Source: an uncultured Muribaculaceae bacterium
GTDB lineage: Bacteria > Cyanobacteriota > Vampirovibrionia > Gastranaerophilales > Gastranaerophilaceae
DNA length: 64,000 nt
Reading direction: 5' to 3'
Assembly: GCA_964446855.1 (NCBI GenBank)
Contig: CAYUQM010000001.1
Coordinates: 8,507 to 72,506, forward strand
The first letter of the stretch is position 1, and each line of letters starts with the position of its first letter. Position numbers and translations under genes: made by a program. Under the pieces are notes generated by a model. The model was given only the letters and a program-made list of their open reading frames with translations. It made no database searches and was not told the origin of the DNA. Below, piece after piece: positions 770 to 32,177 of the stretch.

Positions 770-1867
770 GTGAGAAAAGTCTTAAAGACTGCTAAATCTA
801 AAAACGGAAATTTAATAGAGCTGGTAACAAACGGTGAAATTTCTGATAATAATGTGTTAATAATCGGAGTTTTTCACGGTGATGAGCCGCAGGGAAAGTG
901 TTTGATTGAGAGGTATCTTGAGGACGCCCCCCCTCGAAATCGAAGATTTCGGTCCCCCCACAGAGGGGGGGACATGCCCTATGTTGATAGGCAGCAAATA
1001 ATTAAATTTGCTCAGTATATGAGAAATAATTCAACCGAGCCTGAAATTATTCTTTGGCAATATTTGAAGAATAGGCAGATGGGAGTTAAATTTCGCAGAC
1101 AGGCACCTATTGGTAATTATATTGTAGATTTTGTCAGCTATGATGTAAAACTGATTATTGAACTTGACGGTGGTCAGCATAATGAGTCAGAGCAGATAAG
1201 TAGTGATGAAAAACGAACAGATGATTTGAAAAATTGCGGTTTCAGAGTTCTAAGGTTTTGGAATAATGAAGTTCAGAGTAATTTAAATGATGTTTTAAAT
1301 TGTATAAAGTATTATGTTGATAATGATAAAGAAGATTTAATGTCCCCATTTGATAGGGGGACCGAAATCTTTGATTTCGAGGGGGATGTAAACGCTTTAA
1401 TCTTCATCCCTTGCTTAAACCCTGACGGAATGGCTCAAAATACTAGGACAAACGCAAACGGCGTGGATTTAAACCGTAATTTTCCGACAAAAAATTGGGG
1501 TGAAGACGGAAGTGCCGCTGGAGAGGATGCTTCTTCTTATTTTGGTGGTACGGCTCCTGCAAGTGAGGTTGAAACTCGATTTGTTATAGATGTTATTGAA
1601 GAGTATAAACCTAAACTTATTTTAACTCTTCATGCACCGTATAAGGTTGTGAATTACGATGGTCCTGCAAAAGAGATTGCGGAAGAAATTTCTGAAATAA
1701 TAAAATATCCAGTTGAAGCTTCTATCGGTTATCCTACTCCGGGGAGTTTCGGTACTTATTGCGGGGGTGAGCGTTCTATCCCGACAATTACGCTAGAGCT
1801 GGATGAAGAAATTCCTGTTGAAGAATTAATCGAACCTGTACATAATATCTTTGATATCTTAATATAA
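770..1867 (+). CDS. M14-family zinc carboxypeptidase (MpaA / gamma-D-Glu-DAP peptidase-like) carrying an in-frame 153-codon DUF559 insertion
   Basis: GTG start 4 nt after the ftsY stop, with GAGGGG as SD. N-part has VFHGDEPQG (HxxE zinc motif). C-part has CLNPDG, NGVDLNRNFP, TLHAPY and ITLELDEE. An unrelated DUF559 domain lies between them (aa ~53-205). Confidence 0.75.
   Translation: MRKVLKTAKSKNGNLIELVTNGEISDNNVLIIGVFHGDEPQGKCLIERYLEDAPPRNRRFRSPHRGGDMPYVDRQQIIKFAQYMRNNSTEPEIILWQYLKNRQMGVKFRRQAPIGNYIVDFVSYDVKLIIELDGGQHNESEQISSDEKRTDDLKNCGFRVLRFWNNEVQSNLNDVLNCIKYYVDNDKEDLMSPFDRGTEIFDFEGDVNALIFIPCLNPDGMAQNTRTNANGVDLNRNFPTKNWGEDGSAAGEDASSYFGGTAPASEVETRFVIDVIEEYKPKLILTLHAPYKVVNYDGPAKEIAEEISEIIKYPVEASIGYPTPGSFGTYCGGERSIPTITLELDEEIPVEELIEPVHNIFDILI
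927..972. repeat. Left terminal inverted repeat of the DUF559 cassette (two hairpins)
   Basis: First hairpin: CGAAATC-gaa-GATTTCG (935-951). Second hairpin: TCCCCCC-acagag-GGGGGGA (953-972). The reverse complement matches 1356-1385 at 29 of 30 positions. Confidence 0.8.
1342..1385. repeat. Right terminal inverted repeat of the DUF559 cassette (two hairpins)
   Basis: First hairpin: TCCCC-atttgatag-GGGGA (1343-1361). Second hairpin: CGAAATC-ttt-GATTTCG (1363-1379), followed by AGGGGG. Confidence 0.8.
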
Positions 1868-3974: not shown

Positions 3975-4496
3975 TTATGCGTTATAGCCAAATCGTTTTT
4001 GTAGTCTTTCTGTTTTTTCTTGTACTGTTTCGTTTTTATGTGCTTCTGCATATTTTTCTGCTGCGATTTTGTTATAAAAACAGTCTTTATCAAGAATTAT
4101 ATTTTTTGCGGCTTCAATTTCGTTGAGTGGGTAGTGGTTTCTAAATACATTTGTAGTATTGGTATTGGTTAATTTTCTGTAAGCATTTCTTGAGTAGTTT
4201 TCTGCAACAATTGCCAAAACATCTCTTGAGTTTCCATTTGCTTGAACGATAGATCCGCTTTGATTTTCTTTTGGGTGTTTATAGAAAACTTGGTTTCCGT
4301 CAAAAATGACTTCGCCATCGCTTTCTTCCAGAGGCTTTGCAATATTAAGCATAAAATCGGCTTCAAAATTAGGGTTTTGCACGAACTCTTCTGCTAAACT
4401 CTGGGCGCCGTATTCGACTACTTTAAAAGAGCCAAAGCTGCACTGTGATACGTTTGAAATTGCATTAATATTCATTTTATACTCCTTTTTATACAC
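3975..4496 (-). CDS. Hypothetical protein (166-173 aa)
   Basis: ORF only. An alternative start MNINAISNV lies at 4475. No family recognised. Confidence 0.5.
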   Translation of the reverse strand: MYKKEYKMNINAISNVSQCSFGSFKVVEYGAQSLAEEFVQNPNFEADFMLNIAKPLEESDGEVIFDGNQVFYKHPKENQSGSIVQANGNSRDVLAIVAENYSRNAYRKLTNTNTTNVFRNHYPLNEIEAAKNIILDKDCFYNKIAAEKYAEAHKNETVQEKTERLQKRFGYNA

Positions 4497-14723: not shown

Positions 14724-14757
14724 AAAAGACCCTCTCTAATTTGGAGAGGGTTTTTTA
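14724..14757. terminator. Bidirectional intrinsic terminator
   Basis: A-run, then ACCCTCTC-taatttg-GAGAGGGT, then T-run, between convergent genes. Confidence 0.8.
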
Positions 14758-31070: not shown

Positions 31071-31081
31071 AAACAGAACAT

Positions 31082-31127
31082 GTCCTCCCCTTGTGGGAGG
31101 ACCGAAATCTTTGATTTCGAGGAGGGG
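31082..31127. repeat. Solo copy of the DUF559-cassette terminal repeat (same orientation as the right arm)
   Basis: TCCTCC-ccttgtg-GGAGGA, then CCGAAATC-ttt-GATTTCGAGG. The core ACCGAAATCTTTGATTTCGAGG is identical to 1361-1382. Confidence 0.8.
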
Positions 31128-31136
31128 TTACCTTAT

Positions 31137-32177
31137 ATGAAATCCAGTATGGAGCAGGAAATTTTTGAACAGCCTGAAATCCTAAAAAATCTGTTCGAAA
31201 CGCACGTAAACAAAAATAATTATATTCAGTTTGATATCCCGACAGATATAGAGAAGATTGTCTTTGTCGCAAGCGGTTCGTCATACCATTGCGCAAGATA
31301 TGGTGCTGACCTTTTCGGAAACATTGCAAACATAGAGGCCCGCGCGATTTATTCAAGCGAATTTCTTCTAAAAGCTGCGGTTCCGCATGAACAGAACATT
31401 TTATATGTATTTATTACCCAATCAGGTGAAACATCCGACACAAACCAAGCTTTAAACAGAGCAAAAGAGTTTGGAATGAGAACCCTTTGCATTACAAACA
31501 AAAAAGGGTCTACCATCTGGAAAGCAGCAGATTTCAAAATTGATTGCTGTGCAGGGGAGGAAAAAAGTATTGCGGCGACAAAATCATTAACAACGCAAAT
31601 GATGTGTACAACTTTGCTTGTATTAAAATATGCAGCCCATAAAGGTATTGATATTTTGCCATACTTAAATGAGCTAAAAACTCTTTCCGATAAGATTACG
31701 GAAACTTTTAGCCTGCATGACAAAATCAAAGAAATTGCAAAGGCACTATCCGAATATAAAATTATAGTAGTAACGGCGGACGGGATATCTTATGCTATTG
31801 CAAAAGAAGCTTCTCTAAAAATAAAAGAAACTTCTTATATTTGTACACTATCCAGTATTTTAGGCGAATTTATGCATGGGCACGTTGCGGTATTTAATAA
31901 CAAATCAGCACAAATTCATATATCAGTGGACAAACTTAGCAAAACCGCAGAGAAAAACCTCTTAAAAATCAAAGAAGATTACAATATTCCGCTTTGTGTT
32001 ATAGGAAACACAACAGATAAATTACAAGCAGAATGGAATGTTGATATAGAGAGTAACAGCGAAATAATCAAGTCTTTCTGTCTGGTTGTGATAAGCCAGC
32101 TTCTTGCACTTGAAACAGCCCAAGCTTTAAACAGAAACGTCGACAAACCTCACGGATTACACAAAGTTGTAAAGTAG
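31137..32177 (+). CDS. Tandem SIS-domain sugar-phosphate isomerase/aminotransferase (GlmS isomerase-half-like; no glutaminase domain)
   Basis: MEQEIFEQPEIL, VASGSSYHCARYG, ITQSGETSDT, and a second SIS repeat. ATG 31137 lies 11 nt after a GGAGG located inside the repeat. The ORF-track start at 31080 reads through the repeat. Confidence 0.75.
   Translation: MKSSMEQEIFEQPEILKNLFETHVNKNNYIQFDIPTDIEKIVFVASGSSYHCARYGADLFGNIANIEARAIYSSEFLLKAAVPHEQNILYVFITQSGETSDTNQALNRAKEFGMRTLCITNKKGSTIWKAADFKIDCCAGEEKSIAATKSLTTQMMCTTLLVLKYAAHKGIDILPYLNELKTLSDKITETFSLHDKIKEIAKALSEYKIIVVTADGISYAIAKEASLKIKETSYICTLSSILGEFMHGHVAVFNNKSAQIHISVDKLSKTAEKNLLKIKEDYNIPLCVIGNTTDKLQAEWNVDIESNSEIIKSFCLVVISQLLALETAQALNRNVDKPHGLHKVVK

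Follow-up and report, generated by a model that had tools for sequence, protein, structure and literature searches.

The DNA analysed here, called the window below, is a stretch of 64,000 nucleotides (nt) from contig CAYUQM010000001.1, assembled from an uncultured gut bacterium of the Gastranaerophilales. Near its beginning lies a gene for an MpaA-like M14 amidase, a peptidase of cell-wall recycling, whose coding sequence contains, in frame, a DUF559 nuclease gene bracketed by two inverted repeats (Table 1). The inserted block occupies nt 926-1384 (or 927-1385, the boundary being ambiguous by one base) and measures 459 nt, that is, 153 codons. The reading frame is open through the block, with no stop codon before 1865. 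The original prediction, made from the sequence alone, had described an M14 open reading frame (ORF), 770-1867, split by such a block. The ORF itself, the Pfam matches and the orthologues all agree with that description: the HGDE and NPDG motifs are 181 residues apart in the window protein vs 27 in an empty orthologue. The insertion point lies in a short, variable loop; the HxxE zinc motif precedes this loop and the NPDG strand follows it, and both motifs are nearly invariant. The cassette lacks its own promoter and stop codon, and translation passes through it, making it an internal domain of the amidase.

The block holds a complete DUF559/Vsr-like domain, as had also been proposed. Its match to the profile of DUF559, PF04480 (E 1.2e-35; 122 bits vs a cut-off of 20.6), covers profile positions 3-105 of 109. 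The best match in the PDB is 3HRL (E 7e-24), and the predicted structure has high values of the predicted local distance difference test (pLDDT) over the domain. The motif residues of the family (VDF, E-x-D-G-x-Q-H, D..R and G..V.RFWN) are all present in the window protein and are invariant in 38 free-standing relatives. In 14 copies embedded in amidases, DF, E-x-D-G-x-x-H, D..R and G..V.R are kept, with one Q-to-H change, and the RFWN positions vary. Purifying selection (a ratio of non-synonymous to synonymous substitution rates, dN/dS, of ~0.1) argues only for a functional fold of DUF559; its endonuclease activity is putative. No further DUF559 copy was found in the window by tblastn.

In the host part, a Pfam profile search placed Peptidase_M14 on residues 210-297 of the 365-residue protein, and the zinc ligands and catalytic Glu (H36, E39, H288 and E343) are invariant in the orthologue alignment. 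The NCBIfam match to MpaA is partial and scores 108 bits vs an equivalog cut-off of 157, and the host is therefore labelled MpaA-like only; a partial match to DUF559 (YcjD-type) was also obtained. A query lacking the block retrieved thousands of amidases of ~210 residues from Candidatus Gastranaerophilales (Melainabacteria), annotated at their source as MpaA, murein peptide amidase A or DUF2817. The gene order nusB-ftsY-amidase-cysS is kept among the loci compared, and this conserved synteny indicates that the amidases are orthologues. The M14 part superposes on the MpaA structures 4AXV and 5HXD across the insertion (top Foldseek matches; template-modelling score 0.70 for 4AXV). In an AlphaFold2 model of the 365-residue protein (mean pLDDT 84.5), both domains are of high confidence, and values below 50 are found at residues 57-69, 189-191 and 195-206, which are arm-encoded, and in a short host loop (257-261). 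The arm-encoded peptides, rich in Pro, Gly, Ser and Arg, are thus predicted to be disordered linkers. Both domains being predicted to fold, the model suggests that the insertion is tolerated.

The two arms, of 30 nt each (929-958 and 1356-1385), are complementary at 29/30 positions (97%), and their pattern had no match in 100 shuffles. As single-stranded DNA, each arm folds into two hairpins (z -2.7 and -3.2). Both the repeat search and the DNA fold therefore reproduce what the original prediction had read from the letters. The enlarged first loop of the right arm removes a TGA that the consensus unit has in that frame. An internal ATG just after a G-run in the left arm, with no stop codon following, had also been pointed out. 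It is present in the sequence, but an in-frame Met at this position occurs in only some of the sister cassettes; hence we rejected a conserved, designed Shine-Dalgarno-like internal start. The junctions read ..CTTGAGGAC/G... on the left and ...GGGGG/ATGTAAAC on the right. No direct repeat indicative of a target-site duplication was found at the window junctions, and the flanks of solo repeat units show no consistent duplication; the empty orthologues that were to define the site were found (L003, P0020 and P0030). No recombinase gene adjoins the cassette among the window ORFs or in the neighbourhoods of orthologous loci. An assembly artefact at the junctions was rejected, since the 365-residue protein recurs unchanged in an independent Logan assembly of SRR9335148 and more than 20 related cassettes exist.

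Table 1. Features of the amidase locus and of the solo repeat unit, with their positions in the window
Feature	Position	Strand	Description
Host ORF	770..1867	+	GTG start, 365 aa; MpaA-like M14 murein-peptide amidase (ORF list, Pfam)
Host N-terminal part	770..925	+	Zinc motif HGDE; directly 3' of ftsY (89-766)
Left arm	926..975	-	Reverse-oriented unit of a dispersed triplex-motif (BoxC/PIT/TM-like) repeat; translated APPRNRRFRSPHRGGDM
Left arm, C-block2'	927-933	+	
Left arm, loop-2 hairpin	935-951	+	
Left arm, C-block	953-959	+	
Left arm, loop	960-964	+	
Left arm, G-block	965-972	+	
Internal ATG	974..976	+	In frame; from the CATG end of the unit, 2 nt past the G7 run; possible start
DUF559 / Vsr-like PD-(D/E)XK nuclease domain	998..1309	+	aa 77-180; VDF, ELDGGQH, D..R, G..V.RFWN
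Right arm	1340..1385	+	Forward-oriented copy of the repeat unit of the left arm; translated MSPFDRGTEIFDFEG
Right arm, ATG	1340-1342		
Right arm, C-block	1343-1347		
Right arm, enlarged loop	1348-1355		
Right arm, G-block1	1356-1361		
Right arm, hairpin	1363-1379		
Right arm, G-block2	1380-1385		
Host C-terminal part	1385..1867	+	NPDG, GVDLNRNF, LHAPY, TLELDEE; third zinc ligand and catalytic Glu intact
Junction peptides of the predicted fusion protein			...YLEDAPPR... and ...FDFEGDVNALIFIPCLNPDGMAQNTR
Solo unit	31080..31127	+	10 nt past the gatB stop and closely followed by a SIS-domain (GlmS-like) gene; found by pattern search allowing 2 mismatches

The arms are members of a dispersed repeat family. 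This family was sought by a 21-nt core in species-representative genomes, and 125 units, in loci of 8 kb, were analysed. The exact core occurs in at least 119 genomic stretches, almost all of them from metagenome-assembled genomes (MAGs) of Gastranaerophilales/Melainabacteria, with several per genome. The window has a third copy, the solo unit of Table 1, which the original prediction had overlooked. The count that it had asked for shows copies elsewhere both with and without DUF559. Among the matches listed, the consensus of the ~48-nt unit is (C)ATGTCCTCCCC-TTGA-GGGAGGAC-CGAAATC-TTT-GATTTCG-AGGAGGGG, cassette arms make up ~13 of the 125 units, and ~90% of the units are solo, their 8-kb loci containing no DUF559. 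For this reason we rejected the possibility that the arms are private terminal repeats of a transposon. The solo units are mostly intergenic, and several lie in frame in radical-SAM, MutL-linker and AMP-binding genes.

Conservation within the family follows structure. The first hairpin shows compensatory changes among units, and the 3' G-block is a perfect mirror of the first G-block in 58 of the 125 units. In the two commonest variants (37 units), the mirror is broken only by a central A-to-T or C-to-T. Such changes at the centre of a block are understood to be tolerated in purine-motif triplexes. A C-block, a complementary G-block and a second G-block mirroring the first are found in both window arms and in the solo copy.

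The published BoxC/PIT/TM repeats (Hoyne 2000; Holder et al. 2015, PMC4666352) also have three blocks, the second G-block mirroring the first, and they are likewise dispersed, highly conserved, multi-copy, at times arranged in inverted pairs and tied to local genome variability. This 'intrastrand triplex motif' (TMECO; TM, triplex motif, below) has the consensus CCCTCNCCC-N3-6-GGGNGAGGG-N3-GGGNGAGGG, is present in 23 copies in E. coli K-12 and was found in >260 genomes (PMC4666352). A triplex has been shown in vitro for TMECO only, and the motif is associated with local genome instability; no function, partner protein or means of spreading had been assigned to it (PMC4666352). The loops of the window subtype depart from the TMECO geometry (3-6 nt and 3 nt): its second loop measures 19 nt instead of 3 nt, being made of a 17-nt hairpin and flanking bases, and its homopolymer-like blocks are shorter. 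Because of this hairpin-forming second loop, it is a structural variant of the BoxC/PIT/TM class; by analogy with TMECO, the arms may form triplexes. The sister cassettes of type B, as well as many metagenomic DUF559 flanks, have near-canonical TMs that share the TMECO three-block layout with small differences in the blocks. Unlike the published motif, for which no associated protein is reported and which is said not to be tied to mobile elements (PMC4666352), the repeat here brackets a nuclease gene, and copies of the window family are also found inside coding regions, in frame. Different cassettes read their arms in different frames. By our own reading, the consensus unit is open in all three frames in reverse orientation and in one frame in forward orientation. 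This suggests selection on openness rather than on a particular peptide.

Some further observations concern the repeats themselves. In the solo unit of the window, the first hairpin shows a compensatory change (CCTCCC/GGGAGG), and the DNA fold has a z of -4.3. An ORF beginning at the ATG of the unit (31080) continues in frame into the SIS-domain gene. The likelier start of that gene is at 31139, 11 nt downstream of the last G-block of the unit, GGAGGGG (31121-31127), which may therefore serve as its ribosome-binding site. At 14730-14750, a CCCTCTC...GAGAGGG hairpin followed by a T-run, like an intrinsic terminator, resembles the first hairpin of the motif without the third block. A radical-SAM gene (L088; ORF of ~960 aa, ~4313-4366) encodes the in-frame repeat peptides KPLLEIKDFGPPSRGGQK, LAPCGRGC(H/R)E(V/A)TGEG (twice) and TPHPYPSPARGKGK, placed between and after the Pfam domains, which indicates that some genes accumulate multiple repeat subtypes. 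Type-A units in ten loci (L013, L018, L034, L037, L043, L051, L058, L095, L104 and L118) have common extended flanks, GAATTTTAAGATTTTTGTCC...GGGGTAGCAATGAAAAGTTAACA, and a single genome (CALUVR01) has as many as four of these copies. The type-A unit thus also belongs to, or adjoins, a larger repeat. A chimeric unit (L015, L021, L041 and L083) keeps the CGAAATC hairpin and the 3' G-block, and its 5' half is AAAAACA(A/C)TCC(A/G)GTGGATTGTTTTTGTGAGAGGAA, itself a hairpin. The exact 21-nt core is also present in MAGs labelled Ruminococcus, Clostridia and Muribaculaceae (L039, L061, L080, L086, L119 and L122), some with different outer blocks. These may reflect horizontal transfer, convergent hairpins or mis-binning.

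The amidase site is polymorphic among related genomes. DUF559 lies in frame at the same loop in 14 of the 120 best orthologues. A DNA-level scan with the arm core added 8 further complete cassettes, all in continuous ORFs, and a metagenome scan for DUF559 yielded two more at the amidase site (L145 and L167). At least 22 diverged Gastranaerophilales orthologues thus carry DUF559 at this loop, all in frame and in the same ORF-preserving orientation; in most Gastranaerophilales orthologues the site is empty. In pairs with agreeing host and nuclease divergence, dN/dS is 0.09-0.15 for the DUF559 core vs 0.06-0.14 for the host, and synonymous sites are near saturation (dS ~1). A very recent disruption, one of the options left by the original prediction, is excluded because the frame is kept in at least 22 cases, under purifying selection (dN/dS ~0.1) and through long co-inheritance (dS ~1). 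The accompanying suggestion that the design keeps the host ORF open is in line with these continuous ORFs and with the predicted disorder of the arm peptides.

Host and cassette phylogenies disagree in part. The host parts of the window protein and P0002 are 90-91% identical, with DUF559 domains only 48% identical, and the same discordance is seen for P0045/P0081 (92% vs 52%) and P0019/P0115 (90% vs 50%). Concordant pairs also occur (94/92 and 85/81). In a tree of the host parts, cassette-bearing and empty alleles are interleaved, with sister pairs of both kinds throughout. P0078, whose host part is 98% identical to that of P0063, has lost DUF559 and the inner arm halves by an in-frame deletion, and in P0070 the right arm alone remains. 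Cleanly empty sites are found in P0020, P0030 and P0003 (L003, in conserved synteny). The cassette is thus inherited vertically for long spans and lost by deletions that leave in-frame solo-arm relics, and the site cycles from filled to relic to empty and receives unrelated DUF559 lineages. By analogy with homing endonuclease genes, this looks like invasion, fixation, decay and re-invasion. A comparison of N- vs C-terminal host identities gave no consistent signal of co-conversion tracts in the host flanks. The original idea of a small mobile cassette holds as regards the polymorphism at one site and the host-discordant phylogeny; the arms, however, are a mostly solo dispersed repeat and not element-specific termini. 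In a genome with a type-C cassette, the interval from ftsY to the start of the amidase holds a further unit (L008, 5783-5835), whose hairpin is the variant GTGAATC-TTT-GATTCAC, an indication that repeats cluster around the amidase locus.

The association of DUF559 with triplex motifs extends far beyond this locus. Flanks within 120 nt on each side were surveyed at 80 diverse metagenomic DUF559 loci, with control windows ~600 nt away. A C-block/G-block hairpin was found upstream of DUF559 in 61/76 cases, downstream in 68/75 and on both sides in 52/71. The frequency was 80-91% beside DUF559 vs ~2% in the control windows (1/51 and 1/48). Flank-to-flank inverted repeats above any shuffle were detected at 34 of 72 loci, with arms of up to 46-51 nt. 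The usual orientation places the hairpins outermost (46 vs 5 upstream and 44 vs 5 downstream). Inverted TMs also bracket free-standing DUF559 genes in Gastranaerophilaceae (L128) and Dehalococcoidales (L132), and about half of the 38 free-standing relatives read through into a downstream TM, with tails such as PSPSPQPSPTRGEG. Among 2.9 million viral contigs there were 10 good DUF559 matches, all ten showing the motif; in view of this rarity, phage carriage was rejected. In E. coli K-12, ycjD (DUF559) ends inside a degenerate TM; 170 nt downstream, the interval separating ycjD from fabI holds a perfect TMECO. We take this to be the region where BoxC was first noticed. The flank survey, ycjD and the viral contigs together bear out the proposal that DUF559 is tied to repeat-bounded units in general. 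It had likewise been asked whether other DUF559 copies sit in frame within host genes. One does so in an HrpA-like DEAH helicase of a GC-rich organism (L210, contig Ga0233425_10014536), where a TM-flanked DUF559 lies in frame between DEAD and Helicase_C. In-frame residence is therefore not unique to the amidase.

Three other loci deserve mention. The stretch from the ycjD stop to the perfect BoxC/TMECO (L213; NC_000913.3, 1351200-1351420) contains an incomplete second copy of the 3' end of ycjD (GGAGACGGTGCTGGAGAATATTC...), which may be a trace of a past rearrangement or a second, decayed copy. In L168, DUF559 forms an in-frame fusion with a type I restriction specificity (HsdS) domain that follows it. 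In L030 (860-1620), at least 5 GC-rich units of at least 3 subtypes form an intergenic cluster, within which there is a free-standing DUF559 gene (966-1312) that ends at a stop codon of its own. This gene is flanked by two direct, not inverted, copies of a CCTCTCTCC/GGGAGAGAG/GAGAGAGGGG unit, with a type-A unit nearby.

The window element is a compact selfish cassette, a DUF559 gene between two inverted repeats of the BoxC/PIT/TM type. For its working mode, we give about an even chance to a cycle like that of homing endonucleases. The DUF559 nuclease, made within the fusion protein, would cut copies of the locus that lack the cassette, or repeat-bearing DNA. The break would then be repaired by recombination from a cassette-bearing copy, and the cassette reinstalled. 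The flanking triplex- or hairpin-forming repeats would probably provide sites for recognition or processing, or else portable homology. As homing would require, the cassette is present in some alleles and absent from others at a fixed site in a conserved gene, and element and host phylogenies disagree, with at least three discordant pairs. The insertion point between near-invariant motifs is, by comparison, typical of homing targets. Moreover, a homing role is proven or predicted for related Vsr-like nucleases (PMC2677866, PMC9403480). The original remark that DUF559 has no established mobility role overlooked these Vsr-like/EDxHD relatives, although the window protein does fall in the canonical branch.

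Several points weigh against a homing-like cycle. The nuclease activity of DUF559 and its target are predicted only, and the insert has no intron or intein, the usual means of harmless homing insertion. The right-hand junction shifts by 1-5 codons relative to FIPC among lineages; nucleotide-precise homing is therefore not demonstrated. The closest relative of the window DUF559 anywhere is 60% identical at best, so that recent transfer of this particular copy cannot be shown. Cassette replacement has other possible routes: after transformation, flanking host DNA could undergo ordinary homologous recombination, or a free-standing DUF559 could be the donor in a gene conversion via shared repeats (L030 and L128). 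In the window and in the type A/B amidase cassettes, the hairpins are innermost, a minority arrangement (~10% of loci) that is unexplained. Finally, homing alone leaves ~100 well-conserved solo repeats unexplained.

A relationship like that between REP or REPIN sequences and RAYTs is compatible with homing, and the two are not mutually exclusive. A resident, essentially single-copy DUF559 would make or maintain the dispersed repeats in trans by cutting hairpin or triplex structures; the inverted flanks would exist for the same reason as REPs at RAYT genes, and the peptidase loop would be an inherited parking place. The parallels are close: an enzyme gene sits between inverted copies of the genome's own structured repeat, most copies are solo, and the repeat sequence is conserved through some process of renewal. 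The arms are ordinary members of a family of at least 119 copies, ~90% of them solo. Repeat copies are nearly identical across species whose genes are synonymously saturated, which points to active renewal or strong constraint, and covariation preserves the hairpin and the mirror-repeat third block. Inverted units flank DUF559 genes across phyla, the nuclease has been under long-term purifying selection at a fixed chromosomal site, and E. coli has 23 TM copies with one adjacent DUF559, ycjD (PMC4666352). We nevertheless regard this scheme as rather unlikely. A hydrolytic PD-(D/E)XK nuclease alone cannot do strand transfer, unlike HUH transposases, and no HUH Y1 (IS200/IS605-like) transposase was found in the window protein, whose sole domains are DUF559/REase-like and M14. 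Unlike REPs, the repeats are triplex/mirror repeats and can be intragenic. The amidase site is empty in most Gastranaerophilales orthologues, yet type-A repeats are widespread. The conflict of host and DUF559 phylogenies differs from the mostly vertical descent of RAYTs, and co-variation of DUF559 clade with repeat sequence is not demonstrated.

If the inverted units were instead true terminal repeats, DUF559 would be a transposase-like nuclease excising the whole unit, as in an autonomous cut-and-paste or foldback transposon, and solos and relics would be footprints of excision or abortive repair. Inverted arms of up to 46-51 nt around many DUF559 genes, deletion derivatives that leave in-frame solo arms at the amidase site, in-frame solo units in MutL, radical-SAM and AMP-binding genes, and in-frame cassettes in two unrelated hosts (M14 amidase and HrpA) are all in keeping with this. 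It is improbable, however, given the lack of a target-site duplication at the window junctions, the absence of any integrase or transposase domain from the window protein by domain search, the fact that 13 of the 14 Gastranaerophilales DUF559 genes beside type-A units share one site (among the matches listed), and the existence of cassettes whose arms are of differing subtypes, in opposite orientation or direct (L008 and L030). A fusion beneficial to the host, in which the nuclease domain was recruited for amidase function and the repeats are incidental GC-rich linkers, would agree with the frame always being kept, with purifying selection on both domains and with a cassette lacking its own promoter and stop codon. 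We consider it very improbable, since most orthologues do without the domain, near-identical alleles differ in its presence, unrelated DUF559 lineages occupy one site, and the same architecture is found free-standing and in unrelated hosts; moreover, hydrolysis of murein tripeptide would seem to have no obvious functional tie to a Vsr-like nuclease. Lastly, the arms could mediate programmed inversion of the DUF559 segment and so turn the peptidase gene off and on. The near-perfect inverted repeats in the window are suggestive, as is a 14-fold enrichment of DUF559 genes among computationally predicted programmed-inversion targets (PMC9881135). However, this enrichment is simply explained by the inverted repeats that flank DUF559 genes, no recombinase gene is adjacent, and at least 22 sequenced cassettes are all in the one ORF-preserving orientation, which makes such a switch hardly credible.

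Other known systems resemble the homing-like cassette in some respects. In the Vsr-like/EDxHD homing endonucleases (I-Bth0305I; 'fractured genes', Dassa et al. 2009, PMC2677866), a Vsr-fold nuclease also lies inside a conserved coding gene and is polymorphic between relatives, hairpins are found beside the nuclease ORF, and one case, in an SbcD-like gene, has no intron or intein. However, those nucleases are free-standing ORFs splitting the host gene, or reside in group I introns or split inteins, mainly in phages, whereas the window protein is a canonical DUF559 (3HRL-like), chromosomal, translated in frame and bracketed by dispersed repeats. Membership in the EDxHD/I-Bth0305I family was rejected, as there is no sequence match to 3R3P and the best match is the canonical 3HRL. 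Inteins with homing-endonuclease domains also sit in frame near conserved enzyme motifs, use the expression signals of the host gene and are gained and lost at a fixed site. Unlike them, the window insert has no Hint/splicing domain and no Cys/Ser/Thr...HN junction residues. An intein was therefore rejected: there is no Hint/intein family match, and the junction residues are D52/A53 and G204-D205/D206-V207. It follows that the insert stays in the mature protein as an extra domain. Rickettsia palindromic elements and other MITE-like coding repeats (PMC1779305, PMC10969869) are likewise short palindromic in-frame insertions that add surface or linker peptides. They differ in sequence family and host lineage; here, moreover, the repeats bracket a candidate cognate gene, and some in-frame solos are demonstrable deletion relics of the cassette.

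As far as we found, three findings appear to be new: DUF559 genes are systematically coupled with triplex-motif repeats, such a cassette resides in conserved enzymes as an in-frame domain insulated by linkers, and a single site shows homing-like turnover although neither an intron nor an intein is present. In full-text literature of incomplete coverage, we found no report linking DUF559 or ycjD with BoxC/TM, or of in-frame DUF559 insertions; prior description is possible. To our knowledge, DUF559 is among the most abundant uncharacterised bacterial protein families. BoxC repeats reportedly go back to Bergler 1992, and we know of no function, origin or spreading mechanism assigned to BoxC/PIT/TM in ~30 years, only of a statistical link to genome instability.

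More generally, we propose tentatively, at somewhat less than an even chance, that DUF559 proteins are the long-missing cognate enzymes of BoxC/PIT/TM repeats and that the two together form a pan-bacterial, so far unrecognised class of mobile elements, in which inverted repeats that form triplexes or hairpins enclose a Vsr-fold nuclease gene. If this is true, such elements would spread by structure-directed cleavage and repair, shed solo repeats as footprints, cause genome instability around TMs and persist as in-frame, linker-insulated domains in essential or conserved proteins. The association spans E. coli, Dehalococcoidia and Melainabacteria and merges two puzzles into one testable hypothesis, for which E. 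coli ycjD and its 23 TMs are the obvious model system. The amidase represents a selfish nuclease gene living inside a conserved protein without splicing, as a separately folding domain with flexible linkers encoded by its repeats. In annotation, such 'fusion' proteins should not be taken for domain inventions; in protein engineering, the cassettes mark naturally tolerated insertion sites and linkers. The cassettes also help explain the in-frame short repeats found within genes.

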